Shown here in pieces: positions 1 to 31,830 of a stretch of DNA of 64,000 nt. The stretch covers positions 13,017-77,016 of the forward strand of contig JAKAPL010000003.1 in assembly GCA_021807105.1 (NCBI GenBank), in the 5' to 3' direction. A program made the translations under genes and the position numbers. The stretch's first letter is position 1; every line of letters starts with the position of its first letter. Source of the DNA: Myxococcales bacterium. GTDB taxonomy: Bacteria > Myxococcota > Myxococcia > Myxococcales > JAKAPL01. The notes beneath the pieces are model-generated. The model was not told where the DNA came from. It saw nothing but the letters and a program-made list of their open reading frames with translations, and searched no databases.

Positions 1-1
1 C

Positions 2-694
2 GCGGCCTCCCCCTCGCCCCCAGGCTCGCCGCCTACGGGAACCGCCGCCCTCTGGGAGGTCCTCGGCCACTTCGACGAGTACCCGGCCGCTGTCCCCTAC
101 CAGGTCGCGGACCAGATGAAGGTCGGGAGCGCGACGCTCCGGATGGCCGGGTTCACGACGGCCGATTCGCCCGCCAAGGTCCTCGCCTTCTACCGAGCCG
201 AGTTCGTGCGCGAGAAGCTGATCCTGCCCCCTGGCCCCCCTCCGGGAGACATCCCGTACGAGGGGCTGACGGGCTTCGACCTCCACGCGAAGCTCCAGAA
301 GACGGTGATGGTCATGGACGGAGGGGGGGGCCCGACCCGGGTGATCCTCAGCGTCTCCCCCGAGGCCGGTCTCGACGAGGAGACGCTCACCAGCGAGTCC
401 AAGGTCCCCGCGGGGCTGCCCGTCTTCCCCAAGTCCTCGGACGTCTTCCGAACCGACGGGGAGGACGGCCCCCGCTGGAGCAGCACCATCAGCTACCAGG
501 CGAGCGGCAAGCCGGCCGAGGTCCTCGACTACATCCGCAAGGGCCTCTCGGAGAAGGGCTGGGCCCAGGCGCCGGCGGCCGACACGTTGCCCGGGCAGGG
601 GCTGCGCTACTTGAGGTCCGGCGAATCCGTCGACATCATGCTGCGGCCGCTCGACCTCGGCTCGACCGAGGTCACCTACCTCTACGTGCACTAG
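2..694 (+). CDS. hypothetical protein, 5' end possibly outside window
   Basis: ORF-track ORF 116..694. The same frame stays open back to base 2 with GC-rich third positions, so the start is either ATG 116 or upstream of the window. No family motif recognised. The stop TAG (692-694) is part of the CTAG end of mini-element A1. Confidence 0.5.
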   Translation, partial: AASPSPPGSPPTGTAALWEVLGHFDEYPAAVPYQVADQMKVGSATLRMAGFTTADSPAKVLAFYRAEFVREKLILPPGPPPGDIPYEGLTGFDLHAKLQKTVMVMDGGGGPTRVILSVSPEAGLDEETLTSESKVPAGLPVFPKSSDVFRTDGEDGPRWSSTISYQASGKPAEVLDYIRKGLSEKGWAQAPAADTLPGQGLRYLRSGESVDIMLRPLDLGSTEVTYLYVH

Positions 695-972
695 GAGGCT
701 GGTGGGAACCCGTCTTATTCACGGTCCGGCTGCTGCGGCGTCCGATCCCACGCCTCCCGAAGGGGGGGCTTGCCACCCCTACCACGACATGGGGGGGTGT
801 GCTCGCTCCTTCCTCCTGCGGCGTGCTTTACGCGACGCCTCGTCGGTCGTCGCTCTCGCTTGCCCTTCTCGGCTCGCGGTCTAAAAACGCCTCGCTACGC
901 CGTACCGTGAATCAGACGGGCTTAGGTCTCGGCGCTCTCGCGACGGCACCCATTTCACATCAAGCCTCCTAG
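691..972. mobile_element. CTAG-flanked palindromic mini-element, family A copy 1 (carries a nested family-B MITE)
   Basis: Left end is CTAG|GAGGCTGGTG and right end is CATCAAGCCTC|CTAG. The right-end region is homologous to the copy at 2370..2493 (TTTCACA(C/T)C(A)AGCCTCCTAG). The two CTAGs supply the TAG stops of the convergent genes 2..694 (+) and rsmB (-). Confidence 0.5.
709..920 (+). mobile_element. MITE-like element, family B copy 1 (212 bp)
   Basis: Terminal inverted repeats are CCCGTCTTATTCACGGTCCGGC (left) and GCCGTACCGTGAATCAGACGGG (right). The body is homologous to 31144..31916 and, in reverse orientation, to 63220..63462. It sits inside element A1. Confidence 0.65.
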
Positions 973-2345
973 CGCTTCGCGAGCACCGCGGCGTAGAAGC
1001 CGTCGGTGCCGTGACGCTGCGGCCAGAGCCGCAGGCCGAGCTCCGACCGGAGCATCGCGGGGCCGCCCGCGAGCGGCTCGTCGAGCGCCGCCGAGAGGTC
1101 GGGGCCCAGGACCTCGCGCCAGGGAGCGACCGCGAAGTCACCCGACAGCGCGAGGAAGCGCGCCACGACCTCCTCGTTCTCCTCCCAGAGCAGGCTGCAG
1201 GTCGCGTACACGAGCCGGCCGCCCGGCCGGACGAGGGGCGAGAGCCGCTGCAGGATTGCGAGCTGCCGCGCCGCGTGATCGGCGATAGCCTCCTCGGACA
1301 GCCGCCGCCGCGCGTCCGGGTTTCGCCGCAGCGATCCCGTCCCGGAGCACGGCGCGTCGACGAGCAGGAGGTCGGCCTTCCCCGAGAGCCGATCGATCGC
1401 CGGGGGCAGCGGTCCCCCCTCGGCGATGGCGACGCAGCGGATGTTGTCGGCGCCCGCTCGCGCCGCCCTCGGACGCAGCATCGCCAGCCGGTCCTCGCGG
1501 GCGTCGAGCGCCCAGATCTCGCCCCGATTTCCCATCGCCGCCGCGAGCGCGAGGCTCTTTCCTCCCGCGCCCGCGCAGCCGTCGACGACCCGTCGCCCCG
1601 GTGGAACCCCGCAGGCCAGCGCGATGAGCTGGCTCCCCTCGTCCTGGACCTCGAAGAGTCCATCGTGGAAGGCCCGCAGCCCGAAGGCGTTGACGTGCGC
1701 GGGCAGGACGAGACCCCAGGGGGAGTAACGGCACGCCGCCGGCCGCGCGCCTTCGGCGGCCAGCCGTTCTCCGAGCTCCCCGGCCGCCGTCCGCAAGAGG
1801 TTCGCGCGAACCGTGAGCGGCGCCCTCCGGTTGAGGGCGCTCGCCAGCGCGGCGGTCTCCGCGGCGCCGAGCCGCCCGCCGAAGCGCGTCACGAACCAGC
1901 CGGGGAGGGACGTCTCGACGGCGATCCGTTCCCAGGGATCCTCCTCGCCTTCCAGGACGCTCCCGCGGAGCGCCGCCGCCCGCTCCGCCACCCGCCCTGG
2001 CAGCTCGCCCGGCGGAGGCGCGTCCCCGGCGAACGCCGCCGCGACGGCGAGCCGAAGCACGTCGAGGCGGGTCGCGGAGAGCGTCGCCCGTGGGACGCGC
2101 AATTCGCCCAGGGCGCGGTCGAGCACGGTCTCGACCAGCCGATCCTGCCGCAGGAGGCGGTAAACGGCCTCCGCGACCGCGCGCCGCTCGGCGCTCCAGA
2201 GTCCCCGCTCCCGGCGCAGCACGCGAGAGAGGGTCCGGTCGGCGAGCTGCCCCTCGGCGCGAATCGCCGCCAGGACCTCGAGGATGACCGCGAGGATCCG
2301 GTCGGGGCGAACGCGGCTCCGGAGACCCTGGGCTTTCACTCCCAT
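969..2345 (-). CDS. rsmB: 16S rRNA (cytosine-C5) methyltransferase, RsmB/Sun (NOL1/NOP2/Sun) family
   Basis: 458 aa. SAM-binding motif DGCAGAGGKS, catalytic motifs DAPCSGTGSLRRNPD and YATCSL, and an N-terminal NusB-like region. Confidence 0.85.
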   Translation of the reverse strand: MGVKAQGLRSRVRPDRILAVILEVLAAIRAEGQLADRTLSRVLRRERGLWSAERRAVAEAVYRLLRQDRLVETVLDRALGELRVPRATLSATRLDVLRLAVAAAFAGDAPPPGELPGRVAERAAALRGSVLEGEEDPWERIAVETSLPGWFVTRFGGRLGAAETAALASALNRRAPLTVRANLLRTAAGELGERLAAEGARPAACRYSPWGLVLPAHVNAFGLRAFHDGLFEVQDEGSQLIALACGVPPGRRVVDGCAGAGGKSLALAAAMGNRGEIWALDAREDRLAMLRPRAARAGADNIRCVAIAEGGPLPPAIDRLSGKADLLLVDAPCSGTGSLRRNPDARRRLSEEAIADHAARQLAILQRLSPLVRPGGRLVYATCSLLWEENEEVVARFLALSGDFAVAPWREVLGPDLSAALDEPLAGGPAMLRSELGLRLWPQRHGTDGFYAAVLAKR

Positions 2346-2369
2346 GGCCGCTGCCTTACCACACGGCTC

Positions 2370-2493
2370 CTAGGAGGCTGCTGTTTTTCGCGGGGATGCT
2401 TCACGCCAATCCCCGAAGCCCAGTGCCGGCGGGACGCCGGCGTTCCGAGGATACCCTCACGGTCGTCGCGCACGTTTCACACCAGCCTCCTAG
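2370..2493. mobile_element. CTAG-flanked palindromic mini-element, family A copy 2 (124 bp)
   Basis: CTAG|GAGGCTGCTG...CACCAGCCTC|CTAG, i.e. 10-bp terminal inverted repeats (9/10 complementary) with CTAG on both sides. It lies in the rsmB / 2868 divergent intergenic region. Confidence 0.5.
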
Positions 2494-2867
2494 AAAGGCC
2501 AGCCGCGCGGCGCGAGCCTCCTCGGAAGGAGGACAGGCTCCGGCCATCCTCGGCCCGCCCGACAAAATGGCACGAGAAAGAAGCGGCCTTCCCGCGAGAC
2601 GTGCCAAAAAGTCCCGCGACCGTTCACTGCTCGGAGAGGCAATGGCCATGAGGCGCCCAGGGAGCCAGGAGCCATGGATCGGCTGCTCTTCCGTTGCTTT
2701 CATGGCTTCCACCCGTATCTGCCGCGGGAAACGCGGATCCGATCCGTAAGCGGTTACCAAGCTCCCCGCCGCGTGGGGGCCTCCTCGTCACCACGGAGAA
2801 TCTCCCGTCCATGTCCGCCCGGCGCCCTGTTCGTGCCCTGGCCCGCGCCTTGCTATGATATCCCGTC

Positions 2868-4076
2868 ATGAGGTCGTGGCCTCTCCTCACCGGGATCGCC
2901 TTGCTGGGCGCCGTCGCGACGGCGACGCCCGCGTCGGCGCAGGTGACCAACGCCTACCTGGACGGCAACGCGACCTCCCCCATCTACTCGGGGTACGTCT
3001 GGCCGTTCCACTACGCCGGCTGCGAGGCCGGCTACAGCAACTCGCAGAGCGCCAACAGCGCGGCCGCCCAATCGGACGAGTTTACCCTGTCCGTCCCGTA
3101 CACGGAGGGGATGAGCTACCAGGCGTTCTGGAGCACGGATTCCTCCTGCGTGGCCCCCGACGGCGGCGCGAACAACCTCCCGATGCAGCTCAACCTGATC
3201 GGGGTCGGCGGAACGCCCACCGAGGACGTGCAGGTCAACCTCGAGTCGGTGCTGGCGACGGCCACCGGCGCCACGGATCCCTGCGACAGCCAACCGCCGC
3301 TCTCGGGCACCGGCTACGTGTGCGTCAACGAGAACGGGTACGGCGTGGGGGGCTATGGTTACGGCTATGGGTATGGGGGTTACGGCACGACTTCCATGCC
3401 CTTCTACGTGACGGTCGAGTACGACATGGCCGCGCCCCAGGCTCCTGGGGGCTTCGCCGTCACGCCGGCGGACGGCGAGCTCGACGTGTCGTGGACCTTC
3501 CCTTACGCCCAGGGGGGAGGCGACAACGCCGACCACTTCGTGGTGTTCGCCCAGGAGGATCCGGCCACCAGCCCGGACGTGTTCGGCACCTGCCAGCCCG
3601 CAGGGGGCGTCGCGGACGGCGGCATCGCCGACGGCGGCCCGGCCGGCGCGGCCATCGCGGACGGCGGCGCCGGGGATGGCGGCGCCGCCGGCGGGGGCGC
3701 CACGGACGGCGGCGTCGCGAACGGGGGCTCGTACGTCTCCTCGACCGCGAGCTCCGATCCCACCCACTGGGCCATCCAGCAGACGGTGCAGAACCCCGGC
3801 AACGCGAACCTCTCGTATCCCATGACCGGACTCACGAACGGCGTCTGTTACGACGTCGCGGTCATCGCCTTCTACAGCGACGGCACGCAGGGAAACCCGA
3901 CGGCCACCGTCACCGCGGCCCCCATCGAGATCCTCGACTACTGGCGGCTCTACCGGAAGTCCGGCGGCCAGGACCCGGGCGGGCTCCACTGTCAGGCCGC
4001 CGGAGGTGGGCTCGCGCCCCTCGCGTTCGTGCTCGCGGCCCTCGTCTTCTTCCGCAGCCGCCGCCGGAGGACATAG
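2868..4076 (+). CDS. secreted FN3-like protein with a MYXO-CTERM-type C-terminal sorting tail
   Basis: 402 aa. Signal peptide MRSWPLLTGIALLGAVATATPASA|Q, a GYGYGYGYGGYG stretch, and a Gly/Asp/Ala-rich low-complexity region. The C-terminus HCQAAGGGLAPLAFVLAALVFFRSRRRRT (Cys, Gly-rich, TM helix, Arg cluster) matches the MYXO-CTERM pattern. Confidence 0.75.
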   Translation: MRSWPLLTGIALLGAVATATPASAQVTNAYLDGNATSPIYSGYVWPFHYAGCEAGYSNSQSANSAAAQSDEFTLSVPYTEGMSYQAFWSTDSSCVAPDGGANNLPMQLNLIGVGGTPTEDVQVNLESVLATATGATDPCDSQPPLSGTGYVCVNENGYGVGGYGYGYGYGGYGTTSMPFYVTVEYDMAAPQAPGGFAVTPADGELDVSWTFPYAQGGGDNADHFVVFAQEDPATSPDVFGTCQPAGGVADGGIADGGPAGAAIADGGAGDGGAAGGGATDGGVANGGSYVSSTASSDPTHWAIQQTVQNPGNANLSYPMTGLTNGVCYDVAVIAFYSDGTQGNPTATVTAAPIEILDYWRLYRKSGGQDPGGLHCQAAGGGLAPLAFVLAALVFFRSRRRRT

Positions 4077-4934
4077 GTGCGCCGCGCCGGCTTGGCCGCG
4101 CTCCTGGTGGGACTCTTGTCCGCCCGGATCGCGCTCGCGGACGATCCGCGCCCGAGTGTCTGGAGCATCGAGGTCCGGGGGAGCACGGTCTTCTACCCCG
4201 ACGCCGACGCCGCGGCGACGCCGGGAAATTACGAGTCGTTCGTCGGCCTCGACGGGGCGACGCACTCCGGCCCTCCTTTCTATGACGTCTACGGTTCGAA
4301 GCATCGTCTCCTGACGGAGCTCGAGCTCGACCGCGACGTCTGGAAAGGCTTCGGATCGGTCTCCGTCGGCCTGACCGGCGGTTACGCCGAGTTCTACGGC
4401 CACGGCATGAAGCTGTGCGCGGGGTACGACGCCTCGGTCGGCTGCCTCGCCCAGGCCGCGGGCGGCGCCGGTTACCTCCAGCAGGTCGCCGTCAACTCGA
4501 GCTTCCACCTCGTCCCCGTGCGGCTCCTCGGCACCTACCGGTTCGACGTGCTGGTCCCGCGCGGCATCCCGCTCGTGCCGTTCATCCGCGGCGGACTCGA
4601 CTGGGTGCTCTACTGGAACGCCGAGCAGAGCGGGCAGATCTCGTTCGTCGCGAACGACGCCGGCGTCAAGGGGCTGGGATTGACGACCGGGTACGAGGGC
4701 GCGATCGGACTGGAGCTGCTGTTGGACTGGTTGGACGCCGAGATCGGCAACGACGCCTGGCGCGACCTGGGAATCGCGCACACCTACCTGCTCGTCGAGT
4801 ACGTGGACCAGATCATCCAGAACGGCCCCGGCGACGTCGTCCACGCCATCCGGACCCTCGGAGCGACACCCGCCGCCCCGGCGATCGACCTCTCGGCGCG
4901 CTACTTCGATTTTGGCCTCGGCTTCCAGTTCTGA
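4077..4934 (+). CDS. outer-membrane beta-barrel protein, translationally coupled to the MYXO-CTERM protein
   Basis: 285 aa. GTG start directly follows the upstream TAG (TAGGTG), with GGAGG 7 nt upstream. Signal peptide ends ...ARIALA|DD. Alternating beta-strand pattern and the terminal FGLGFQF are typical of OMP C-termini. Confidence 0.7.
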   Translation: MRRAGLAALLVGLLSARIALADDPRPSVWSIEVRGSTVFYPDADAAATPGNYESFVGLDGATHSGPPFYDVYGSKHRLLTELELDRDVWKGFGSVSVGLTGGYAEFYGHGMKLCAGYDASVGCLAQAAGGAGYLQQVAVNSSFHLVPVRLLGTYRFDVLVPRGIPLVPFIRGGLDWVLYWNAEQSGQISFVANDAGVKGLGLTTGYEGAIGLELLLDWLDAEIGNDAWRDLGIAHTYLLVEYVDQIIQNGPGDVVHAIRTLGATPAAPAIDLSARYFDFGLGFQF

Positions 4935-7408: not shown

Positions 7409-8404
7409 TCAGCCGCAGCTCCCCCCGTTGCAGCTCTCCCCGGTCGGGCAGTCCATGTCGAAGGTGCAGGAGCCGCACTGCCCGGTCGAGTAGTCGCAGC
7501 CCGGGGCGTTCGCCGGGCAATCGGTGGGCTTCTGACACTGCACGCAGCGGCCCGCGACGCAGTACGGCGCGCCGGCGTCGGCGCAATCGGCCGGGACTTG
7601 GCAGACGACGCAGACGTTGTCCGGGTTGCAGTACTTTCCGATCCCGGCGTCCCGGCACTCCGCCGCCTCGACGCATTCGACGCAGATGCCGCTGTCGAGG
7701 TCGCAGTCCGGCGTCGCTCCCTGGCAGACCCCGGGGGTCGCACAGCTCTCTGCGCAGGCCCCGTTGGGGAACGTTGGATCGCAGATGAACCCACCAGCGC
7801 AGTCGCTCGACTGGCGGCAGCCGCAGACCCCGCTGGAGAGGCAGACCGGAGCATCACCGCCGCAACCGCCGTTGTTCGTGCAGGCGCACGAACCGTTGTT
7901 GCAGTTCTCGTTCAACGGGCATTCCAGGTCCCCCTGGCAGAAGCCGCAATGACCGCCGGAGCAGCCCGGGTTGTGGTAAGGGCAGTCCGACGGTCCCAGG
8001 CATTCCACGCAGGTATAGGTCATGGGGTCGCAGCGCCCGGCATGAGGCTTGCCAGCGCAGTCGGCGTCGGACAGACAATCGACGCAGGCGCCGGTCATCG
8101 CGTCGCAGACCTGCCCGACGCAGGTGACGCCGCCGTCGGCGCAGCTCGGCCCCCCCCCGCTCGATGTCGATCCGCTCCCCGATCCGCTCGTCGATCCCCC
8201 GCCTGACGCTCCGCTCGTACTCCCGGTCACCCCGCTGGTGCCGCCGCTGGAACTGCTGCTGCCGCCGGAACTACCGCCGCCCCCGCCGCCGCTCGTGCTG
8301 CTCAGGGCCGTCCCGGTCCACCCCCCGTCGCTGCGGGTGATGACCGCCTGACACCCGAGCAGGGCTAGCCCCATCATGGCAAAGAATCGGAGTGCTCGTG
8401 CCAT
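7409..8404 (-). CDS. Cys-rich repeat lipoprotein
   Basis: Start taken at MARALRFFAMMGLALLGC (lipobox LLGC). The ORF-track extension to 8575 is only an off-frame reading of the groEL GGM tail. It has a Ser/Gly linker and then ~8 repeats of the C-x2-C-x3-(D/S)-C-x6-8-C-x5-7-C type. Confidence 0.7.
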   Translation of the reverse strand: MARALRFFAMMGLALLGCQAVITRSDGGWTGTALSSTSGGGGGGSSGGSSSSSGGTSGVTGSTSGASGGGSTSGSGSGSTSSGGGPSCADGGVTCVGQVCDAMTGACVDCLSDADCAGKPHAGRCDPMTYTCVECLGPSDCPYHNPGCSGGHCGFCQGDLECPLNENCNNGSCACTNNGGCGGDAPVCLSSGVCGCRQSSDCAGGFICDPTFPNGACAESCATPGVCQGATPDCDLDSGICVECVEAAECRDAGIGKYCNPDNVCVVCQVPADCADAGAPYCVAGRCVQCQKPTDCPANAPGCDYSTGQCGSCTFDMDCPTGESCNGGSCG

Positions 8405-8471: not shown

Positions 8472-10169
8472 TCAGAAATCCATGTCCTCGCCGCCGCCGC
8501 CGAAGTCGTCCATGTCCCCCATCCCGCCCATGCCCCCGCCCATGCCACCGCCCATCCCCCCACCCATGCCCCCACCCACCTTGCGCGTCTTCCTCTTCGG
8601 CGCGTCGGCGACCATCGCCTCGGTGGTGAGCAGGAGCGAGGCGACGGAGGCCGCGTTCTGGAGCGCCGTCCGCTCGACCTTGGTCGGGTCGATCACTCCG
8701 GCCTTCTCGAGATCCTCGAACTGCTCGGTCGCGGCGTTGAACCCGAACGCGCCCTTCTCGCCGTTGATCCGCTCGATCACCACGGCCCCTTCGTGACCCG
8801 CGTTGATGGCGATTCGCCTCGCCGGCTCCTCCAGCGCGCGCCGCACGATGTCCACGCCCATGCGCTGGTCGCCGGGGGCCTCGAGCTTCGCGAGCCGGGG
8901 CAGGCAGCGGACGAAAGCCACCCCTCCCCCGGGGACGATCCCCTCCTCAACCGCGGCGCGGGTCGCGTGGAGCGCGTCCTCCACACGGGCCTTGCGCTCC
9001 TTCATCTCGGTCTCGGTCGCCGCGCCGACGTGGATCACAGCCACCCCGCCGGCGATCTTGGCGAGCCGCTCCTGGAGCTTCTCGCGGTCGTAGTCGGAGG
9101 TCGTCTCCTCGATCTGCGCCCGGATCTGCTTGATCCGCCCTTCGATGGCGTCCCGCTTGCCCGCGCCGTCGACGATCGTCGTGTCGTCCTTGTCGATAAC
9201 CACCCGCTTCGCCCGGCCGAGGTCCTTGAGCGTCAGGCTGTCGAGCTTGATCCCCAGCTCCTCGGAGACGACGTTGCCGCCGGTCAGCGTCGCGATGTCC
9301 TTGAGGATCTCCTTGCGCCGGTCGCCGAAGCCGGGCGCCTTGACCGCGGCGCACTTGAGCGTCCCGCGCAGCTTGTTGACCACCAGCGTCGCCAGCGCCT
9401 CCCCCTCGACCTCCTCGGCGATCAGGAGGATCGGCTTGCTGCCCCGGGCCACCTGCTCGAGCAGCGGAACGAGGTCGGCCATCGCCGAGAGCTTCTTCTC
9501 GGTGATCAGGATGTAGGGGTCCTCCAGGACCGTCTCCATCCGCTCCGCGTTCGTCACGAAGTAGGGAGAGATGTAGCCGCGGTCGAACTGCATCCCTTCG
9601 ACGACCTCCAAGGTCGTCTCCATCCCCTTCGCCTCTTCGACCGTGATCACCCCCTCCTTGCCGACCTTCTCCATCGCCTCGGCGATGATGTTGCCGATCG
9701 TCTCGTCGCCGTTCGCGGAGATGATGCCGACCTGGGCGATCTCCTTCTTGCCGCGGGTCTCCTTGGAGAGCTTCTTCAGCTCGTCGATCACGGCCTCCAC
9801 CGCGCGGTCGATGCCACGCTTCAGATCCATCGGGCTGTGACCGGCCGCAACGAGCTTGAGCCCTTCCTCGTAAATCGCGCGGGCGAGGACCGTCGCGGTC
9901 GTCGTCCCATCGCCCGCCTTGTCCGAGGTCTTGCTCGCGACCTCGCGGACCATCTTCGCCCCCATGTCCTCGAACTTGTTCTCCAGCTCGATTTCCTTGG
10001 CAACCGTCACCCCGTCCTTGGTCACCGTGGGCGATCCGAACGACTTCTCGATGACCACGTTCCGGCCCCGGGGGCCGAGCGTCACGGCCACCGCGTTGCT
10101 GAGCGTCACCACGCCGCGCAGGATGGCCTCGCGGGCGAGTTGGTGGAAGTAGATCTCTTTGGCGGACAT
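8472..10169 (-). CDS. groEL: chaperonin GroEL (Hsp60)
   Basis: 565 aa. [20 protein letters not shown]...[32 protein letters not shown], full-length GroEL pattern, C-terminal GGM repeats, and SD GGAGGAG. No groES ORF lies upstream. Confidence 0.95.
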
Positions 10170-10241
10170 CGTCTCCTCCGTTTTCTTTCCAAAACTGAAG
10201 TGGGCCGCGGTGCGGCAGGCGCCTACCCGCGAGCGGCGCGT

Positions 10242-10269
10242 AATCTAACCGCGGGCAGATCCGTGTCAA
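10242..10269 (-). promoter_or_regulatory. candidate sigma70-type promoter of groEL
   Basis: The minus strand reads TTGACA-16 nt-TAGATT (TGTCAA at 10264-10269 and AATCTA at 10242-10247 on the plus strand), about 70 nt upstream of the groEL ATG. Confidence 0.4.
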
Positions 10270-10440
10270 GGGTGGTTTAACCCAAGAGGAGCGACCTCGT
10301 CTTCTTGAGGCAACCGCTCGATTCCTGGACCCGTTCCCCTCCCGTCCCCGTTCTCGTCCCCGATACCCGACGGTCCGAGGCCTTCGCCCCCGGCTCATCC
10401 TTCTCGAACTCGAAGGCGTGCTCCTGCCGCCACGACGGGG

Positions 10441-11177
10441 CTCATCCAACGCTGGAACGATGGGTCCTGCGGCTGGAAGGGCCGCTCATGCGGCTGCAAA
10501 CGTGGCTCATGCCGCATGAACCCGACTTCATCCCGGATGCGAAGCCGTTCATGGTCGATGAGATCGATCTCATCCGGCATGAATGTCGATTCATTCGCCA
10601 TGAATTCAGTTTCATCCGCCTTCCCTTGGCCTTCATGGGGCATGAGCTGGCTTTCATGCAGGAGGATCGGGCCTTCATCCCGGATGCGAAGCCGTTCATG
10701 GTCGATGAGATCGATCTCATCCGGCATGAATGTTGGTTCATTCGCCATGAATTCAGTTTCATCCGTCTTCCCTTGGCCTTCATGGGGCATGAGCTGGCTT
10801 TCATGCAGGAGGATCGGGACTTCATCCCGGATGCGAAGCCGTTCATGGTCGATGAGATCGATCTCATCCGGCATGAATGTCGATTCATCCCCCATGAATT
10901 CAGTTTCATCCGCCTTCCCTTGGCTTTCATGGAGCATGCGCTGACTTTCATGCAGGAGGATCGGGCCTTCATCGAGCATGAGCTGGCTTTCATGCGACAT
11001 GAGCTCGTCTTCGTGCGGGAGGAGCCTGTCATCATCGAGCATGACCTGGTCTTCATGCGGGAGGATCAGGCTTTCATGGGGCATGAGCTCGTCTTCATCC
11101 GGCATGAGCATTCCCTCCATGCCGCATGAGCGGCTCTCCATGCGGCAGGATCTCTGTTCATCCGGGATGGGCGCCAG
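10441..11177. repeat. array of ~35 phase-locked 21-bp units with an internal TCAT-N5/6-ATGA inverted repeat
   Basis: Units start at 10485+21k with no indel through 11177. Examples: TTCATGGGGCATGAGCTGGCT, TTCATTCGCCATGAATTCAGT, TTCATGCGACATGAGCTCGTC. Local GC is visibly lower than in the flanks. It lies between divergent groEL and hsp70. Confidence 0.85.
10526..10966. repeat. three tandem 147-bp higher-order repeats (7 x 21 bp each)
   Basis: Copies start at 10526, 10673 and 10820. They differ at only 4-5 positions from each other (about 97% identity). Confidence 0.9.
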
Positions 11178-11755
11178 CCACAGGCGAATGGCCGCGAGCC
11201 CCTCCTCCTGGAAGCACCGATCCTCCGCCATGAACATGACTTCAGCGTCGATGAATGGAGCGCTCTTTGCAAGGGATGTGCGTTCATCGGGGCAGCGGTG
11301 AGGGCGATCCGGGTCCGCCGCCGTTTCGTGCCGAACGCTTGCGGCGTTGCGCCTGCATTATCGCCTCTGGCGTCGCACGATCGCGAGGTCATGATGCATG
11401 GAGGTCGACAGGTGCGGACCGCGAGAGGCGATCGCCCCCGCGCGATCGCGATCCATGCGCGTCTTCGTCCTGGCCGAGCCCCATGGAATCGATCGATGAA
11501 CGGCTCTGGGGGCTGCGCTGCCCGCAGGCGTGAGGAGGGAGCACGCCCCCTGAGGTCGCGGTAGGGATGGCAAGTCCCTCCGTCGCGCCCTGCTCGGGCG
11601 ATAGGGGCGCCTCGACTTCTGGGGTCAAGAGCGAAGCTGGGGAGCAGCCCCCTTCTCGCCGCTCAGGGCCGCGCCTCAGAAGGGGTGAGGCCGCGTACGG
11701 ACGGATCGGGGGAGCGCCCGCCCCATCGTCCTCGCGACGTGGTAACGTAGCCCCG

Positions 11756-13357
11756 ATGGCTCGCCCCTCCGCCGTCGGCGACGCTCTGGCGTTAGGCATC
11801 GACCTCGGGACGTCCTATAGCTGCGTCGCGGTCGTCCAGGACGGCAAGCCCGTCGTCGTGCCCAACGAGCGCGGGGAGCGAACCCACGCCTCGGTCGTCT
11901 CCTTCCTGCCAGACGGGGTCGTGCGCGTCGGCAACGAGGCGAAGAAGAACATCGTCCTCAACGCGGAGAACACGATCTACAGCGCGAAGCGGCTGATCGG
12001 CCGCTTCTTCTTCTCCGAGGAGGTGAAGCGGGCGCGAGCGCTGATGTCCTACACGATCGTCGAGGGAGAGAACCACGGCGTCCGCGTCCGGGCCGGCGGC
12101 CAGGATCTGTCTCTGCCGGAGGTCTCGGCGTTCGTGCTGCGGGAGATGAAGGCCATCGCCAGCCGCTTCCTCGGGCACGAAGTCACCCGGGCGGTCATCA
12201 CGGTCCCAGCCTACTTCAACGACAACCAGCGCCAGGCGACGCGCGACGCGGGCCGGATCGCCGGGCTCGAAGTCCTCCGGATCGTGAACGAGCCGACCGC
12301 GGCGGCGCTCGCCTACGGCGTCGGGCGCGGGCTCAAGCAGAAGGTGGCGATCTACGATCTGGGCGGCGGCACGTTCGACGTGTCGATCCTGGAGATCGGC
12401 GGCGACGTGTTCGAGGTGCTCGCGACCGCGGGAGACACGTTCCTCGGCGGCGACGACTTCGACGCCCGGATCGTCGGCTGGCTCGCGGATGGCTTCCTGA
12501 AGGAGCACGCACTCGACCTGCGGCAGAATCGCGTCTGCCTCCAGCGGCTGAAGGAAGCGGGCGAGAAGGCCAAGATCGACGTGGGCCGGGAGGGCCGGGC
12601 GGCGATCCATCTCCCCGCGATCTGCCAGGACATGCAGGGGCGGGTCATGGATCTCGACCAGACGCTTCCCGCCGCGCAGTTCGACTCGATGGTCGGGGAC
12701 CTGGTCCAGCGGACATTCAAGGTCTGCGACGAGGCGCTCCAGTCGGCGCACCTCGCCGCCGCGGATCTCGACGTGGTGATCCTCGTCGGCGGCCCCACCA
12801 GGTTGCCGATCATCCGCCGGTCGGTGGAGCAGTACTTCCAGAAGAACCCGATCACCGGCATCGACCCCGACGAAGTCGTGGCGATGGGAGCGGCCCTCCA
12901 GGCCCAGGCGCTCCTCGACGTCCGGGCCGCCAACACGCTGCTCGACGTGACGCCGCTGACGCTGCGGATCGGGACGGTGGGCGGCTACACCGAGACGATC
13001 ATCGACAAGAACACGCCGATCCCGATCGAGAAGACGAAGTCCTTCACGACGAGCCGCGACGGCCAGGACCGGGTCCGGATCCGGGTCTACCAGGGCGAGG
13101 ACGGTCGGGCGGAGGCGTGCGAGATGCTCGGCGAGTTCGAGTTCACGGGATTCCGCGTGGGCCTGCGGGGAGAGGTCAGGATCGACGTGACCTTCGAGAT
13201 CGACAGCAACGGCATCGTCAACGTCTCGGCCGCCGACGCCGAATCGGGGCAGCGGGCCTCGACGACCCTCCACCTCTCTTCCGGCCTGACCGAGCAGGAT
13301 ATCCAGGCCGCGTCGACCCGGGTCGCACGGGCGCCCGACCTGCCCGCGACCCTGTAG
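11756..13357 (+). CDS. Hsp70-family ATPase lacking the C-terminal helical lid (HscC-like)
   Basis: Start taken at MARPSAVGDALALGIDLGTSYS. Motifs GIDLGTSYS, DLGGGTFDVSILE and VILVGGPTRLPIIRRSVEQYF. At 533 aa it ends shortly after the beta-sandwich substrate domain. Confidence 0.85.
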   Translation: MARPSAVGDALALGIDLGTSYSCVAVVQDGKPVVVPNERGERTHASVVSFLPDGVVRVGNEAKKNIVLNAENTIYSAKRLIGRFFFSEEVKRARALMSYTIVEGENHGVRVRAGGQDLSLPEVSAFVLREMKAIASRFLGHEVTRAVITVPAYFNDNQRQATRDAGRIAGLEVLRIVNEPTAAALAYGVGRGLKQKVAIYDLGGGTFDVSILEIGGDVFEVLATAGDTFLGGDDFDARIVGWLADGFLKEHALDLRQNRVCLQRLKEAGEKAKIDVGREGRAAIHLPAICQDMQGRVMDLDQTLPAAQFDSMVGDLVQRTFKVCDEALQSAHLAAADLDVVILVGGPTRLPIIRRSVEQYFQKNPITGIDPDEVVAMGAALQAQALLDVRAANTLLDVTPLTLRIGTVGGYTETIIDKNTPIPIEKTKSFTTSRDGQDRVRIRVYQGEDGRAEACEMLGEFEFTGFRVGLRGEVRIDVTFEIDSNGIVNVSAADAESGQRASTTLHLSSGLTEQDIQAASTRVARAPDLPATL

Positions 13358-13366
13358 GGCGGCGGC

Positions 13367-13921
13367 ATGGACCCAGCGTTCGAGATCGAGACCGAGGCGC
13401 TCTGGGGGGTCCTCGACACGCTCGACTATTTTCAGCTCCTCGACCTGCCCCGGACGGCGAGTCCGGCGCAGATCCGGCAGGCTTTCCACGAAAAATCGCG
13501 GCTCTACCACCCGGACCGGATGAGCGCCCTCCCCGATTCGCCGCTGAAGGCCCACGCCTTCCGGATCTACAAGCGGATCGTCGAGGCGTACGTGACGCTG
13601 CGCGACGATCAGAGGCGCGAGCGCTACCGCGCGGACCTCGCGAGGCCCGACCGCGAGAAGAAGCTTCGCTTCGACGAAGGGGGCGAGCAGGAGACGAAGG
13701 CGGCCTACCGCCGTCAGGTGGAAGAACAGTTCGGGCAGACGCCGCGCGGGCGGGCGCTCTACCGGCAGGCGCAGGCGGATCTCGAGGCAGGGCGGGTCGA
13801 GGCCGCCGTCCGCGGCCTCAAGATGGCCTTGACGTTCGAACCCCGGAACGCGCGCTTCGCGGAGCTGCTCGCCCAGGCGGAGAGAGGGCTCGTTCACGGC
13901 CCTCGCTTCGAGATCAAGTAG
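13367..13921 (+). CDS. J-domain (DnaJ-like) co-chaperone with a TPR-like C-terminal helix pair
   Basis: 184 aa. DYFQLLDLPRTASPAQIRQAFHEKSRLYHPDR contains the HPD tripeptide. It starts 9 nt after the Hsp70 stop. Confidence 0.8.
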   Translation: MDPAFEIETEALWGVLDTLDYFQLLDLPRTASPAQIRQAFHEKSRLYHPDRMSALPDSPLKAHAFRIYKRIVEAYVTLRDDQRRERYRADLARPDREKKLRFDEGGEQETKAAYRRQVEEQFGQTPRGRALYRQAQADLEAGRVEAAVRGLKMALTFEPRNARFAELLAQAERGLVHGPRFEIK

Positions 13922-14470
13922 ATGATCCTCGACATCTGGGCCCTCCTCCTCGTCGCGATCTTCGCCATCGGCGGAGCGGTCGTGGGGCTGTCCGGGCAGG
14001 CGGCGCGCCTGCTCGCCCTGGCCGGGGCGACCGTCGCTGCCCTGTTGACCGGGTCGCGCCTGGGCGGATTCCTGCCCGCGCTCGCCCCGCGGCCCATGCG
14101 GACCGCGCTCGCGGCGGCGCTGGTGGGCATCGTCGTCTATCTGCTCCTCTCGTCCCTGCTCCGGTCGCTGCTGCGGCGGATCTTCACCCGCGGGAGAGGG
14201 GTCGACCGGCTGCTCGGGGGAGCGCTGGGCGCGGCGCAGGGCGGCTATCTCGCCTACCTGTTCGCGCTGCTCCTGCCGGTCGTGAACCTCGGGTTCCGCG
14301 CCGCGGGGTCTCGCCTCTACGTTCGGACCGAGGGCTCGCGGCTCGCCCGCTTCGCGGCGCTCCATCCCCTGCCGCTCGAGGCGGTGGACGAGCGACGGGA
14401 GCTGCGCAGGATCATCGATCGGGTCCGAGGGCTCCCGTCGCCGGGCGTGACGAGCTCGACGAAGAGATGA
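13922..14470 (+). CDS. CvpA-family integral membrane protein
   Basis: 182 aa. The ATG directly follows the upstream TAG. Four predicted TM helices and an N-terminus MILDIWALLLVAIFAIGGAVVG typical of CvpA. Confidence 0.55.
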   Translation: MILDIWALLLVAIFAIGGAVVGLSGQAARLLALAGATVAALLTGSRLGGFLPALAPRPMRTALAAALVGIVVYLLLSSLLRSLLRRIFTRGRGVDRLLGGALGAAQGGYLAYLFALLLPVVNLGFRAAGSRLYVRTEGSRLARFAALHPLPLEAVDERRELRRIIDRVRGLPSPGVTSSTKR

Positions 14471-28416: not shown

Positions 28417-31143
28417 ATGCGTGTCCATCGAATCCTTTTCCTCGTCGCGGGCGCCGGAGGAGGAATCCTCTCGGGTTGCTGCCCCCACCACGGCTCCGGC
28501 GGCTCGGGGACCATCGTCGGGGTCGACGGCGTCGGTAAGACCAGCGACCTCGACTTCGGCAGCGTCCTCGTCGGGCAGACCAAGACGCTCCAGCTCAAGC
28601 TCACCGACACGGGAGCGCAGGCCCTCGCCGTCTTGAACGTCGCGCTCTCCGGTCCGGACGCCCAGGACTTCAAGGTGCGCGGCAATCTGCCGCCCTCGAT
28701 CCAGCAGGACGCTACGGCCAGCGTCTCGGTGGTGTTCGCACCCTCCGCGGGCGGAGCCCGGACGGCGAACGTCACCATCCAGACCAACAGCCAGGAGACC
28801 CCCATGGTCACGGCCAAGCTCACCGGCGCGGGCATCGAGCTCGGCCTGTGCGCTCACCCCTCGACGCTGGACTTCGGCAACGTCCAAGTGCTCGGCACGC
28901 CGAGCGTCCAAGAGGTCGACCTCGGCAACTGCGGCCCGTCCCCGTTCTCCATCACGGCCGGTCCGGTCAAGGGGACGCAGGCCGGAGACTTCTCGCTGTC
29001 GGCGGAGACCTCGGCCACGCTGCCGCCGGGCGGGAAGCTCGTCGTATGGGTCAGCTACTCGCCGGCCGCCATCGGTCCCTCGTCGGCCTTCCTGCCCCTG
29101 ACCGTCAGCCTGACCGGCTGCACGAACTGCACGGCCCCATCGATCTCCCTCGCGGGCGTCGGCGTTGACGGAGCGCTCGTGTTCTCTCCGAGCCCGGTGA
29201 GCTTCCCCTCCGTCCCCGCGGGCACCACCTCGACCCAGAAGGTCCTGGTGAGCAACGTCGGCACCGAGCCGGTCACCATCGGGACCAACGACCTCGGCAC
29301 CCTGGGCGGGAACTCCGTCTTCACCCTGTCGGGCGTCCCTCAGCTTCCGGTGACGATTTCTCCCGGGGGGAACGTCCCGCTCTTCGTCGTCTACAGCCCA
29401 TCGAGTCAGGCCGGCGATCAGGACACGCTGGTCGCCTGGTGGTTCGTGAAGGATCCGAAGGTGTCCCCCCGGGAGGCGACGGATCTGCTCTCCGGCAATC
29501 AGGTCCTCGGACCGTGCAGCCTCCAGGTCGCGCCCGCCGCGCTGAACTTCGGCAACGTGAAGACGGCCACGCAGGCGACCGAGCAGGTCACCCTGACGAA
29601 CTCGGGCGGGACGGCCTGCAAGGTGTCGGGGATCACCCTCGACCCGGCGAGCGATCCGGACTTCGGCCTCGCCTCCGGGCAGGCGGTCGCGCTCGCCGTA
29701 CCCCCGGGCAGCAGTGCGAAGGTCGGCGTGACCTTCTCCTCCCCGCAGAACGCCAACGCCCCCCTCTTGCGCCGAGGCACGCTCGTCTTTACGACCGGCG
29801 ACCCACAGAACCCGAACGCCGCCGTACCTCTGTCCGCCTTCATCGACAAGGGCAGCGTCTACTCCGGCGGGTGGCCCAAGTGGCACCACGACAACGGCAA
29901 CACGGGCCAGACGGGCGCCGACACGTCCACCCTCAAGGGCACCGTCGGCTGGACGTTCAACGTCGGCAGCCCGACGGCTGGGAATGGCTGGCTCGGCGGG
30001 ACGTTCCTCGAGTCGCCGGTCATCGACGGGAGCGGCAACATCTACTTCCTGGAGATGGACGGCACCTACGTCGCGGTGAGCCCCGCGGGCCAGAAGCTCT
30101 GGTCGGTCGCGCTCTCGGATCCATCCCAGGACCCGCATCCCTGCACCCCCGCCATCCTCGCCGGTGGCAGCATGTACGTGAACTCAGGCTCCGAACAGAA
30201 CACCGATCCGAACCTGTACCTGATCTCCTCCTCCGGGAACATCCTCTACCAGACCACCTTCGGGGTGGAGGGGTTCTCCTCCACCCCCGGGCTCGGCAAC
30301 GACGGCGTCCTGTTCGAGGCGGACGACGACGGCATCCCGGGCAACGGTCCGGACAAGTTCGACATCATCGCCTTCCAGGCGCAAGCGAGCGGCCAGGTCA
30401 GCCAGATCGGGCAGTACCGGCTGCCCTTCTCGGTGCCCGGCGAGCGGCTCTCGGTCGCGATCGCCGACGACGACACGAGCTACTGGTGCAGCGGCGCCCA
30501 GTGCTTCGCGGTCTCGCCGCCGAAGAGCGGCTTCGCCCCGCTCCCGGCGTGGCCGGCGAGAGGCGTCACCCTCGCCAACACGGACCCGAACGCGCAGGAC
30601 AACGGCGACGGCGTGATCATCTCGGACCTCGCGGTCGATCTGTACGGGACGACGGGGTTCATTTACGCGTACGCGGGATGGGAAGACCTCGACCCGTCGA
30701 GCAACGACTACTCCGTCCAGGGCGTCCTCGTCGCCCTCGACCCCTCGAACGGCGCCCAGAAATGGACGATGCCGCTGCGGGCCGGCCCGCTGCCCTCGGG
30801 CTGGAACGTCCTGATGTCCGATTATGGGAACGCCCCGCCGGCGATCGGCAACGACGGGACGGTCTACGTCGGCAACGGCGACGGCCTGCACGCGGTGGAC
30901 GGGGCGACGGGCCAGCAGAAGTGGATCTTCAAGAGCGCCAACGTGAGCGACGCCCCGGCGGTCGGCGGCGACGGCACGGTCTTCTTCGGTTGCTCGGACG
31001 GCAACTTCTACGCCGTTGGAGCGGACGGCAGGCTCCGCTTCCAGATCCAGACGAAGGGGGCGATCAGCTCGTCCCCGGCGATTGCCACGGACGGCACGGT
31101 CGACTTCGTCTCCGACGACGGGAATCTCTACCACGTGAATTAA
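28417..31143 (+). CDS. large lipoprotein: four Ig-like (ASH / choice-of-anchor-D-like) domains plus a PQQ-type beta-propeller
   Basis: 908 aa. Lipobox ILSGC|C. Repeated LDFG(S/N)V.VG...V.L.N.G...L.I modules. The C-terminus has DGTVYVGNGDGLHAVDGATGQQKW and DGTVFFGCSDGNFYAVGADG propeller blades. Confidence 0.8.
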   Translation: MRVHRILFLVAGAGGGILSGCCPHHGSGGSGTIVGVDGVGKTSDLDFGSVLVGQTKTLQLKLTDTGAQALAVLNVALSGPDAQDFKVRGNLPPSIQQDATASVSVVFAPSAGGARTANVTIQTNSQETPMVTAKLTGAGIELGLCAHPSTLDFGNVQVLGTPSVQEVDLGNCGPSPFSITAGPVKGTQAGDFSLSAETSATLPPGGKLVVWVSYSPAAIGPSSAFLPLTVSLTGCTNCTAPSISLAGVGVDGALVFSPSPVSFPSVPAGTTSTQKVLVSNVGTEPVTIGTNDLGTLGGNSVFTLSGVPQLPVTISPGGNVPLFVVYSPSSQAGDQDTLVAWWFVKDPKVSPREATDLLSGNQVLGPCSLQVAPAALNFGNVKTATQATEQVTLTNSGGTACKVSGITLDPASDPDFGLASGQAVALAVPPGSSAKVGVTFSSPQNANAPLLRRGTLVFTTGDPQNPNAAVPLSAFIDKGSVYSGGWPKWHHDNGNTGQTGADTSTLKGTVGWTFNVGSPTAGNGWLGGTFLESPVIDGSGNIYFLEMDGTYVAVSPAGQKLWSVALSDPSQDPHPCTPAILAGGSMYVNSGSEQNTDPNLYLISSSGNILYQTTFGVEGFSSTPGLGNDGVLFEADDDGIPGNGPDKFDIIAFQAQASGQVSQIGQYRLPFSVPGERLSVAIADDDTSYWCSGAQCFAVSPPKSGFAPLPAWPARGVTLANTDPNAQDNGDGVIISDLAVDLYGTTGFIYAYAGWEDLDPSSNDYSVQGVLVALDPSNGAQKWTMPLRAGPLPSGWNVLMSDYGNAPPAIGNDGTVYVGNGDGLHAVDGATGQQKWIFKSANVSDAPAVGGDGTVFFGCSDGNFYAVGADGRLRFQIQTKGAISSSPAIATDGTVDFVSDDGNLYHVN

Positions 31144-31356
31144 CCCGTCTTATTCACGGTCCGGCTGCGGCGGCGTCCGATCCCGCAACGGTTCCGGTCC
31201 TCGCTCCGTCTGCGCTGGGGCGAGGAGCGAAGCTTTGGAGCTGCACCTTATCTCGCCGGCCGGCCGCGCCTCACACGGGGTGATCGCTTCTTACGGGCGG
31301 ATCAGGGCCGGGCTCGGTCCGGAGGTTCATTCCCACCGTCCGAGCGCTCCGCGGCC

Positions 31357-31566
31357 CCGTCCGCAGCCTCCGGGGCTCCGTCCGCAGCCTCCGGGGCTCC
31401 GTCCGCAGCCTCCAGGCTTCCGTCCGCAGCCTCCAGGCTTCCGTCCGCAGCCTCCGAGCTTCCGTCCGCAGCCTCCGGGCTTCCGTCCGCAGCTTCCGGG
31501 GCTCCGTCCGCAGCTTCCGGGCTTCCGTCCGCAGCCCCCGGGCTTCCGTCCGCTGGCGTGGGGCCT
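31357..31566. repeat. tandem array, 9-10 x 21 bp (CCGTCCGCAGCCTCCGGGCTT)
   Basis: Units start at 31357+21k and are exactly phased, with point variants only (CTCCGGGG / CTCCAGGC / CTTCCGGG). Confidence 0.9.
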
Positions 31567-31725
31567 TCGTCGATGGCCCCCAAGCCTCCGTCCGAGCCGC
31601 TGAAGCTTCCGTCGGGACCGGACGAGCCTCCGTCCGCGCCGGACGAAGCCTCGTCCACCGCGGACGGAGCGCTCCCGAGCGCGGACGAGGATCCGCCGCC
31701 GCGGGACGGGGCTCCGTCCGCGCCG

Positions 31726-31830
31726 GACGGAGGCCCCACGGCACGAGACGGAGGCCCCACGGCACGAGACGGAGGCCCCACGGCACGAGACGGAGGCCCG
31801 GCGGCACGAGACGGAGGCCCGGCGGCGGCG
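31726..31830. repeat. tandem array, 5 x 21 bp (GACGGAGGCCCCACGGCACGA)
   Basis: Units at 31726, 31747, 31768, 31789 and 31810. The first three are identical. Confidence 0.85.

Follow-up and report, generated by a model that had tools for sequence, protein, structure and literature searches.

The stretch of DNA considered here (the window) comprises 64,000 nucleotides of a Myxococcales bacterium (GenBank assembly GCA_021807105.1, contig JAKAPL010000003.1, positions 13,017 to 77,016), and the element under study is an array of 21-bp, palindrome-bearing units that lies in the 1586-bp gap between divergently transcribed genes for GroEL and for a short Hsp70/DnaK-like protein. An earlier note, made from the letters of this DNA, had described the array in a gap of about 1.6 kb between two divergent chaperone genes and upstream of a candidate groEL promoter, and had preferred to read it as a phased row of sites for a dimeric DNA-binding protein. 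Both chaperone genes were confirmed, and a sigma70-like groEL promoter was found, with 216 bp between its -35 hexamer and the start of the array farther upstream. The features of the locus are as follows.

8472 to 10169, minus strand: stand-alone groEL (Pfam Cpn60_TCP1, 1.6e-79; NCBIfam GroEL, 844 bits).
10242 to 10269, minus strand: sigma70-like groEL promoter, TTGACA-16-TAGATT (10/12).
10395 to 11237, minus strand: open reading frame (ORF) of 280 aa with xxLMxHE heptads, sharing its codon boundaries with the plus-strand ORF and judged not to be a real gene.
10401 to 10484: left edge, four decayed in-phase units (e.g., TCCTGCCGCCACGAC) in which the A/T of the core is replaced by G/C.
10485 to 11177: core array, 33 contiguous 21-bp units in a single register.
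10488 to 11129 (also from 10305), plus strand: ORF of 213 aa with FMxHExx heptads, likewise judged not to be a real gene.
10527 to 10967: three 147-bp higher-order copies of seven units each (441 bp), forming the central array.
11115 to 11156: two aberrant units (CTCCATGC.GCA.GA...), each with an internal +1/-1 shift, kept in all alleles.
11178 to 11261: right edge, decayed in-phase units (e.g., ATCCTCCGCCATGAA and TTCAGCGTCGATGAA).
11756 to 13357, plus strand: short Hsp70/DnaK-like gene, the first of an hsp70, J-domain and CvpA-like operon.

All units follow one plan, in which a palindrome of the form nTCATG-CnG-CATGAn, decayed or intact, fills positions 1-15 and a variable 6-bp linker fills positions 16-21. 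A total of 29 of the 33 units begin with YTCAT, 30 carry TCAT at positions 2-5, and 17 carry SATGA at positions 10-14, which gives TCATS-N3-SATGA, often as TTCATG-CNG-CATGAR. Units with other beginnings stand at 11010 (TTCGT), 11031 (ATCAT), and 11115 and 11136 (CTCCATG...); the last two are the aberrant units, which create a TGA at 11127-11129 that closes the plus frame and after which the next unit is again in 21-bp phase. Tandem Repeats Finder reported periods of 21, 42, 63, 147, and 294 over positions 10524-11147, with the 147-bp period present in 3.0 copies over 10526-10973 (95% matches, 0 indels). The place of the array and its single 21-bp register from 10485 to 11177 are therefore as first described, but 33 units rather than about 35 stand in that register. 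Similarly, the claim that there is no indel holds for the phase but not for the units at 11115 and 11136; the unit start (T/C)TCAT was recovered, but (C/G)ATGA, said to be present in most units, is present in half; and the three 147-bp copies of seven units were found, with pairwise identities of 97.3, 95.9, and 93.2% in place of the approximately 97% first given.

The array is AT-richer than its surroundings, as had been claimed, with a G+C content of 0.553 (0.531 in the block of three 147-bp copies) compared with 0.705 for the whole window. A/T bases recur along it with a 10.5-bp phase, for which the Fourier peak reaches 38 times the mean. The motif TCATNNNNSATGA occurs 33 times in the window when both strands are counted, 32 times inside the array, whereas shuffled sequences give 0.31 occurrences. 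The orientation of the half-sites alternates every 10 and 11 bp, such that dyads exist both within units (TCATG-CnG-CATGA) and across unit junctions (ATGAr-N6-yTCAT). Additionally, GATC is enriched in the array, with three occurrences per 147-bp block, and the spacer between the array and hsp70 (window 11300-11500) contains clustered GCGATCGC and CGATCG motifs.

The locus was recovered in five other assemblies by exact-protein look-ups of the flanking genes. Two of these (L005 and L006) are contigs of NCBI metagenome-assembled genomes (MAGs; GCA_027418035.1 and GCA_027417975.1) and three (L001, L004, and L007) are metagenome contigs from ENA. The array is present, with variation, in five independent assemblies and is thus not an assembly artifact. 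In these near-identical strains the flanks are 99.5-99.96% identical to the window and the arrays differ. Both MAGs carry two 147-bp copies instead of three, so that their arrays are exactly 147 bp (seven units) shorter, while the order groEL, array, hsp70 is kept in the window and in both. At its groEL end, the L001 array is longer by six units. In L004 the units are reordered, among them two reciprocal hybrids, FMGHDRA and FMQDELT, that derive from FMGHELA and FMQEDRA; the L004 array plus leader differs from the window by 21 bp in length. All length changes inside the array among the alleles compared are multiples of 21 bp, which marks it as a fast-evolving variable-number tandem repeat (VNTR), or hypervariable minisatellite: the repeats are head-to-tail and within the 10-100-bp range of such elements, and close strains differ in copy number by whole units. 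This strain-level VNTR nature, together with the membership in a wider class described below, is what that note had missed.

Left of the L004 array, an unknown 469-aa gene followed by alternative-complex-III-like genes takes the place of groEL; the switch lies about 60 bp outside the array, and the leader from 10422 onward is common to the window and L004. L001, from the same sample (ERZ27237364), has groEL and another left end of the array, so that either the two contigs stem from two strains, which a rearrangement with its breakpoint about 60 bp from the array sets apart, or one genome has two array loci. The left half-site holds only 1 of 26 recent polymorphisms. Approximately 21 recent point differences between copies and alleles were counted by eye; about 6 of them leave the amino acid unchanged when read in the plus frame, and 3 do so in the minus frame, roughly the share expected under neutrality. 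Elsewhere in the window, L005 is collinear except for positions left of about 4922 (1-4921), which it lacks; unrelated sequence makes up the first 3316 bp of that contig, and the difference represents an insertion or rearrangement at the level of strains.

A second array with a 21-bp period lies at window positions 31336-31820, between the convergent genes at 28417-31143 (plus strand) and 31918-32613 (minus strand). It consists of about 10 copies of CCGTCCGCAGCCTCCGGGCTT, diverged units, and then about 4.5 copies of GACGGAGGCCCCACGGCACGA, and it is G+C-rich and non-palindromic with several frames open. Intergenic 21-bp minisatellites thus recur in this genome.

The architecture of the array near groEL was also found in at least four other unit families on five GC-rich contigs (L193, L151, L215 and L246, and L157). 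The pattern used to scan metagenome contigs demanded two palindromes and one half-site in 21-bp phase, and the matches listed were mostly 7-bp microsatellites. The shared form is nTCAYR-N3-YRTGAn with a free linker of about 6 bp and a period of 21, and the core occupies the same unit positions in all families. The linkers and the gene contexts differ, and nothing beyond core, period, and free linker is shared. In L193, 21 units of TTCATS-NNN-SATGAA form a 42-bp higher order, their linkers being CCTCGA and YCCACT; L151 contains 13 units; L215 and L246 contain ATCATC-NTT-GATGAT units and derive from the same metagenome (Ga0181517) but have different flanks; and L157 contains TTCATGAGCGATGAA units. 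The L151 array lies between co-directional DUF218 and DUF885 genes and the L246 array in the gap where ferritin-like and 4Fe-4S genes converge with their 3' ends, indicating that the class is not tied to chaperone genes or to promoters. When genome contigs were searched with a loose pattern (YTCAT every 21 bp, five times), no palindrome-class array was among the matches listed, which were microsatellites of 7 bp and 21-bp repeats of unrelated kinds (in Nostoc, Sorangium, and others). A search of genome contigs for loci related to the minus-strand ORF found none. Further, viral contigs and plasmids yielded no arrays, with no match in 72,556 plasmids.

Several smaller observations concern these contigs. 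GATC is present at every unit junction in L151, L215, and L246 (TCG followed by ATC) and is absent from the L193 units. A real gene ends next to a palindrome array in five cases, at L151 8603-8626, L246 3996-4080 and 4395-4439, L193 739-775, and L215 6257-6352. In 4 of the 5 (p ~0.045) the gene shares the codon register of the array, and its stop codon precedes the first unit by 3-84 nt; only a FliQ-like ORF in L215 departs from this. Stop-codon read-through, an origin of the arrays from 3' coding repeats, and chance are possible causes. Moreover, positions 1796-2300 of L249 (ENA ERZ25039517 contig_75121) contain about 20 copies of GTTCCAGAGCCACGACCGGYCG at a 21-bp period that read as FQSHDRP heptads with host-like CAC/GAC codons. 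This array is non-palindromic except for one palindrome-type unit (GTCATGAGGCATGAC); it lies directly downstream of an MqsA-like Zn-ribbon/helix-turn-helix gene, the gene caller fuses it to a 300-aa ORF without Pfam hits, and the array could be related to the class but shifted toward G+C.

Read as protein, the window array yields heptads on both strands (FMxHExx on the plus strand, xxLMxHE on the minus strand), both open as first noticed, since TTC ATG nnn CAT GAA is its own reverse complement and spells F-M-x-H-E on either strand. Out of six frames, three run open, or almost so, across the array; because any stop-free repeat unit gives an open array, this openness is no evidence for a gene. 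The distribution of conserved bases is more informative. Across 44 distinct units of the window family, conservation is centered on positions 2-14, with TCAT (positions 2-5) nearly invariant and linker positions 15-21 near random, and the mean information by codon position (0.90, 1.01, and 0.87) indicates no coding periodicity. The plus-strand wobble base at position 3 is C in 44 of 44 units and the minus-strand wobble base at position 4 is A in 41 of 44. When distinct units of six arrays are considered, the fourth plus-strand codon (His/Asp) is NAT in 71 and NAC in none, and its mirror codon is NAT in 90 and NAC in 2, so that the His/Asp codon ends in T in 161 of 163 instances pooled over both strands. 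By comparison, 13 genes of the window have a G+C content at third codon positions (GC3) of 0.916, use NAT for 87 of 529 NAY codons (16%), and use GAA for 13% of Glu, while genes that flank the other arrays have a GC3 of 0.79-0.91 and use NAT for 3-28% of such codons.

It had been claimed that His is always CAT and that Glu is often GAA on both strands of the window array. The former holds for the plus strand (16/16) and, with one exception, for the minus strand (14/15); GAA is used for 27/34 Glu codons on the minus strand and for 7/25 on the plus strand. On each strand the F-M dipeptide fits the host codon bias and the H-E dipeptide violates it, and no single-strand coding model explains both. 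The two array ORFs have a GC3 of 0.72 and 0.63 compared with 0.92 in the host, and their synonymous-usage scores of 0.15 and -0.06 are within the range of antisense frames, whereas 13 reference genes score 0.29-0.80 (11 of them at 0.60 or above).

The arrays of other contigs add evidence of a different kind. In L151, two unit types occur in one phase, RTCATG-CGG-CATGAC and ATCACA-AAT-TGTGAT; they differ at seven adjacent bases, yet both are palindromic (TCATG..CATGA versus TCACA..TGTGA), and the pairs 5/11, 6/10, and 7/9 are complementary in 12-13 of the 13 units, which shows that both half-sites changed together, something that a repeat constrained as protein would have no cause to do. The pair 7/9 is complementary in 30 of 44 units of the window family, 14 of 15 in L193, and 13 of 13 in L151. 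Reading frames are not protected to the same degree: the plus frame of allele L001 contains a TAA, the TGA at 11127 is present in all alleles, pairs of frame-breaking +1/-1 shifts are followed by in-phase units, and in L157 a TGA ends the minus frame of 5 among 10 distinct units, although T at position 12 is still kept. This pattern of fixed and free bases points to selection on the double-stranded DNA palindrome and not on codons or an RNA fold. The earlier note had placed the constraint on the palindrome from the window alone, and the fixation of wobble bases on two strands, the paired half-site change in L151, the stops, and the lack of a protein homolog or predicted fold (below) bear it out.

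Two dyads could in principle represent the site. The dyad across unit junctions gives 18-mers of the form sATGAr-N6-yTCATs exactly 3 bp apart, some of which are good palindromes (e.g., GATGAGATC followed by GATCTCATC at 10557-10574). Conservation peaks, however, near position 8 and includes the pair 7/9, with positions 16-21 the most variable; the covariation in L151 lies within units; and the L151 array starts with a left and ends with a right half-site. On these grounds the 15-bp palindrome within each unit is taken as the site and the remaining 6 bp as the linker.

The favored interpretation, to which a probability of about one half is assigned, is that the array is a reiterated palindromic site for a dimeric DNA-binding protein, with one site per two helical turns. 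It starts from the observed architecture, phase, strain polymorphism, and symmetric DNA-level constraint, and from the occurrence of the class in other GC-rich genomes and unrelated contexts; protein binding, cooperativity, and any cellular role, such as chromosome structuring, titration, or local regulation, are what we infer beyond them. In such a model a sequence-specific protein, homodimeric or a dimer of dimers, would find in the array a long series of identical sites that resemble operators. With half-sites about one helical turn apart and sites two turns apart, all dimers would sit on one face of the helix, and neighboring bound dimers could touch to form an extended nucleoprotein filament or a wrapped complex. 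The 10.5-bp phasing of A/T content would favor bending to one side, making cooperative coating or wrapping plausible. Growth, shrinkage, and reshuffling by slippage or unequal recombination in whole units would keep the phase and could account for the hypervariability, while units at the edges would escape homogenization and selection and decay toward G+C. That the decayed edges have lost the core A/T suggests that selection maintains the A/T core of the inner units. The phased array of dimer-binding sites preferred in the earlier note thus stands as the best reading, with the array observed and its occupation by protein proposed.

A number of observations weigh against this interpretation. 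The right half-site is intact in only 17 of the 33 units of the window array, and the pair 6/10 is non-complementary in L193, in L157, and in about half of the window units. A single additional motif match exists outside the array in 64 kb, and no regulon is therefore visible. No binder was found, and among the neighbors scanned no helix-turn-helix or ribbon-helix-helix gene is consistently adjacent. Recent polymorphisms are not significantly depleted in the core (7 of 26 compared with 9.9 expected, p = 0.17). Because the scan pattern preset the palindromes, part of the resemblance among its matches arises by construction. Non-palindromic 21-bp minisatellites also exist in this genome and its relatives, so that the phase-lock alone is ordinary minisatellite behavior. 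Finally, real heptad proteins of a hydrophobic-hydrophobic-x-D/H-D/E type do exist (P0132 and L200).

Many of these points bear on the main rival, which is that the array is a selfish or neutral minisatellite without host function, its core either serving amplification (through slipped or hairpin intermediates or as a recombinase or nickase site) or being alike among arrays that are young copies of one ancestral unit. This is possible but is considered doubtful. The extreme whole-unit turnover between strains and the reciprocal hybrid units are as expected for such an element, as are the unrelated gene contexts, the palindrome-free 21-bp minisatellites of the same genome, the presence of one unit family at two places in Ga0181517 (L215 and L246), and the two left ends in ERZ27237364 (L001 and L004). 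Recent polymorphisms likewise show no clear purifying selection, since synonymous changes make up about 6 of 21 when the plus frame is read and 3 of 21 when the minus frame is read, and the core is not significantly spared. However, linker and center are near saturation and TCAT/ATGA is nonetheless kept in at least five unit families, which youth alone is insufficient to explain, and the decayed edge units show what an unconstrained outcome looks like. The hairpins that single units can form (-1.6 to -3.4 kcal/mol) are too weak for a structure-based mechanism, and a core that serves amplification would still need a recognizer, which leads again to a protein-DNA site.

That the array encodes a translated His/Asp/Glu/Met-rich heptad protein, from the plus-strand ORF (10488-11129) or the minus-strand ORF (11237-10395) and possibly acidic and metal-binding or chaperone-associated, is regarded as unlikely. 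Both frames are open and there is no net indel in about 30 diverged units, gene callers pick the plus ORF in all related contigs, and GGAAGGG stands 7 nt before the ATG at 10488. Comparable heptads occur in real proteins (the LAFVEPD linker of lipoprotein P0132 and DDVIIDE in L200), the FQSHDRP array of L249 uses host-like CAC/GAC codons, and the neighboring gene is in the codon register of the array in 4 of 5 cases. Against this, openness is trivial for a repeat, codon usage is not that of the host, the wobble bases are fixed on both strands against host bias, conservation lacks a three-base periodicity, the half-sites of L151 changed symmetrically, and stops interrupt L001 in the plus frame and L157 in the minus frame. 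Neither array ORF matches an entry of Pfam, NCBIfam, or PDB. No homolog of either frame came out of two word-indexed searches over 5.8 billion clusters, and an exhaustive phmmer search of 1.84 billion representatives found only unrelated heptad translations and the antisense ORF of L193, although the protein collection lacks the array ORFs of the related contigs, which makes this absence weaker than it appears. AlphaFold2 single-sequence runs (no alignment) gave a mean predicted local distance difference test score of 37 and 32, which is weak evidence. Overall, host-like codons, third-position variation, homologs at the protein level only, and a frame open in all members were each absent, and no orthologs were found that keep the amino acids but not the nucleotides; the related arrays conserve the nucleotide core, including its wobble bases. 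One 377-aa database 'protein' (P0123) is the antisense of the L193 array, or of an identical contig, run into the shadow ORF of a neighboring gene, and it illustrates how such arrays mislead gene callers.

A special case of the binding-site interpretation would make the palindromes a heat-shock operator bank, that is, sites for a regulator of groEL and hsp70 acting as an enhancer, silencer, or titration sink. Its appeal lies in the position of the array, between divergent chaperone genes and close upstream of the groEL promoter, and in the conservation of the gene order in the window and two MAGs. Arrays of the same class in non-chaperone contexts (L151 and L246), including one between convergent genes without a promoter, and the different left neighbor of the array in L004 make it very unlikely and lend no support to the regulator sink near heat-shock genes suggested in the earlier note. 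Moreover, the copy number is free to vary between strains, and neither the controlling inverted repeat of chaperone expression (CIRCE; TTAGCACTC-N9-GAGTGCTAA) nor the HspR-associated inverted repeat (HAIR; CTTGAGT-N7-ACTCAAG) has a match anywhere in the window when as many as 3 mismatches are allowed. The nearest groEL relatives (P0001 and P0002, the latter with 84% identity) have no upstream array: the intergenic region of L003, scanned directly, contains none, and in L002 groES lies directly upstream of groEL. Synteny followed through the closest GroEL relatives thus revealed no arrays, at loci that are not orthologous. A link to chaperone regulation is not supported.

An RNA-level element (a transcribed structured leader, small RNA, or protein sponge with repeated short hairpins) is scarcely credible, since, although the palindromes could form many small hairpins and the arrays of L151 and L246 lie downstream of genes where transcription is likely, fold z-scores of the 147-bp block on the two strands against shuffles are only -1.0 and -1.4, stems of 5-6 AT-rich pairs are marginal (unit DNA hairpins of -1.6 to -3.4 kcal/mol), arm mismatches are mostly not G-U wobbles, no Rfam family matches above noise, and the window array lies upstream of the groEL promoter. 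The z-scores, the hairpin energies, and the Rfam result also led to the rejection of a repetitive extragenic palindromic (REP)-like hairpin.

The genes around the array have features of their own. No groES lies upstream of groEL (8472-10280 region), which has its own strong sigma70-like promoter and no CIRCE; stand-alone groEL genes are among those described in Myxococcota (PMC5406781). The closest database relatives of this groEL are 84% identical where identity is reported (Anaeromyxobacter and Myxococcaceae), which indicates a poorly sampled lineage. The Hsp70 protein is short (533 aa); its match to DnaK models covers only positions up to about 507 of 625, and its score falls slightly short of the DnaK equivalog cut-off. 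Its gene is the first of an apparent operon (window 11756-14470) with a J-domain/tetratricopeptide repeat protein and a CvpA-like membrane protein, which suggests a specialized Hsp70 system. Next to groEL, a gene for a 322-aa protein (7409-8377, minus strand) has weak matches to the Myxococcus Cys-rich repeat (TIGR04201) and TraA, and these support a Myxococcota origin of the window.

If the favored interpretation is extended to the whole class, the arrays might constitute a family of chromosomal site-array elements that has so far gone undescribed, in soil bacteria of high G+C content (Myxococcota and possibly others). In it, 13-33 in-phase 15-bp palindromes would be coated by a dedicated dimeric protein at several loci per genome and would serve in titration or in the structuring or segregation of chromosomes, with the rapid evolution of VNTRs; this is offered tentatively and is, on balance, improbable in so specific a form. 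No published description of such an architecture was found in a literature of which coverage was incomplete, and its novelty is probable but not proven. Should a protein indeed coat the arrays, they would provide a natural chromosomal scaffold of tunable length for cooperative DNA binding, in a phylum with poorly known nucleoid organization, and the 15-bp palindrome would be a direct handle for finding the binder. Whatever their function, the arrays break short-read assemblies (the L001 and L007 contigs end inside the array), give rise to spurious 'hypothetical proteins' annotated on either strand, including fusions with antisense shadow ORFs such as P0123, and can serve as high-resolution strain markers. 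The behavior of wobble positions, furthermore, separates two-strand heptad-like DNA from coding DNA.

It is useful to set the array beside systems that have been described. CIRCE/HrcA and HAIR/HspR also involve inverted repeats upstream of groEL or dnaK genes, but their sequence and spacing are different and they are single sites. A clustered regularly interspaced short palindromic repeat (CRISPR) locus was rejected because the units are contiguous and 6-bp linkers are far too short for spacers, and the motif of the M. xanthus nucleoid protein CdbA, a GC-rich direct repeat, does not fit.

Plasmid iterons, such as the seven contiguous 22-bp iterons of the R6K gamma origin, resemble the array in the phased direct repetition of a protein-binding unit of about 20 bp. 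They differ in that the array has no adjacent rep gene, no GC-skew switch, units that are internally palindromic, and far more copies. A replication origin was likewise rejected, as neither rep nor dnaA is among the neighbors and the cumulative GC skew across the window has no minimum at the array, DnaA boxes and an A/T-rich unwinding element not having been looked for.

In type II partition systems, ParR binds parC, which in R1 consists of ten 11-bp iterons and in pSK41 of contiguous 20-bp repeats that form a superhelical segrosome. The likeness lies in short repeats that follow one another without gaps, at about 10-11 bp per half-unit, a layout that permits cooperative binding of dimers on one face and wrapping. 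In contrast, parC repeats are direct, lie beside parM/parR, and flank or overlap the par promoter, whereas the units here have inverted half-sites, number 13-33, and are accompanied by no par genes that could be seen. The sopC centromere of plasmid F, as described in PMC3177203, has 12 direct 43-bp repeats, each with a 16-bp inverted repeat bound by SopB. Like the present array, it is a long head-to-tail array with one palindromic dimer site per unit and a unit of whole helical turns; unlike it, its period is 43 rather than 21 bp, and the present array is chromosomal, free in copy number, and without a plasmid match or a sopA/sopB-like gene among the neighbors tested. The repeat-array architecture would suit a plasmid partition centromere, but no par domains are encoded by the immediate neighbors (GroEL, Hsp70, J-domain, CvpA-like, and unknown proteins) and none of the 72,556 plasmids matched. 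With no par or rep among the neighbors tested, no plasmid match, and no skew switch, the centromere or iteron of plasmid type raised in the earlier note is not sustained.

The ARG boxes bound by arginine repressors are 18-bp palindromes (TNTGAATWWWWATTCANW) separated by 2-3 bp, with two such palindromes 3 bp apart in E. coli and contiguous 20-nt palindromes in Streptomyces (PMC5839063). The array shares with them the two-turn period of 21 bp; the junction reading fits the 18+3 geometry, and TGAAT-N4-ATTCA is present at two unit junctions inside the 147-bp block, perfectly at 10579-10596 and with one mismatch at 10600-10617. The center of an ARG box is, however, A/T-rich and conserved, whereas positions 16-21 are here the most variable and are G+C-rich. 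Additionally, the covariation and array ends of L151 favor the other dyad, and ARG operators have 1-2 boxes compared with 13-33 units. An ArgR operator was rejected, as positions 16-21 lack the WWWW center.

Bacterial VNTRs, for example the mycobacterial interspersed repetitive units (MIRU), are intergenic tandem arrays that vary between strains by whole units, and like the present array they have a homogenized center and decayed edges. A minisatellite of P. gingivalis described in PMC4596501 is a further example of this kind. What sets the array apart from VNTRs and minisatellites is a palindromic core common to arrays with unrelated linkers in different organisms, together with a strong A/T shift and 10.5-bp phasing in a 70% G+C genome. 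The element is classed as a variant of two known kinds, the bacterial minisatellite and, as proposed here, the binding-site array.

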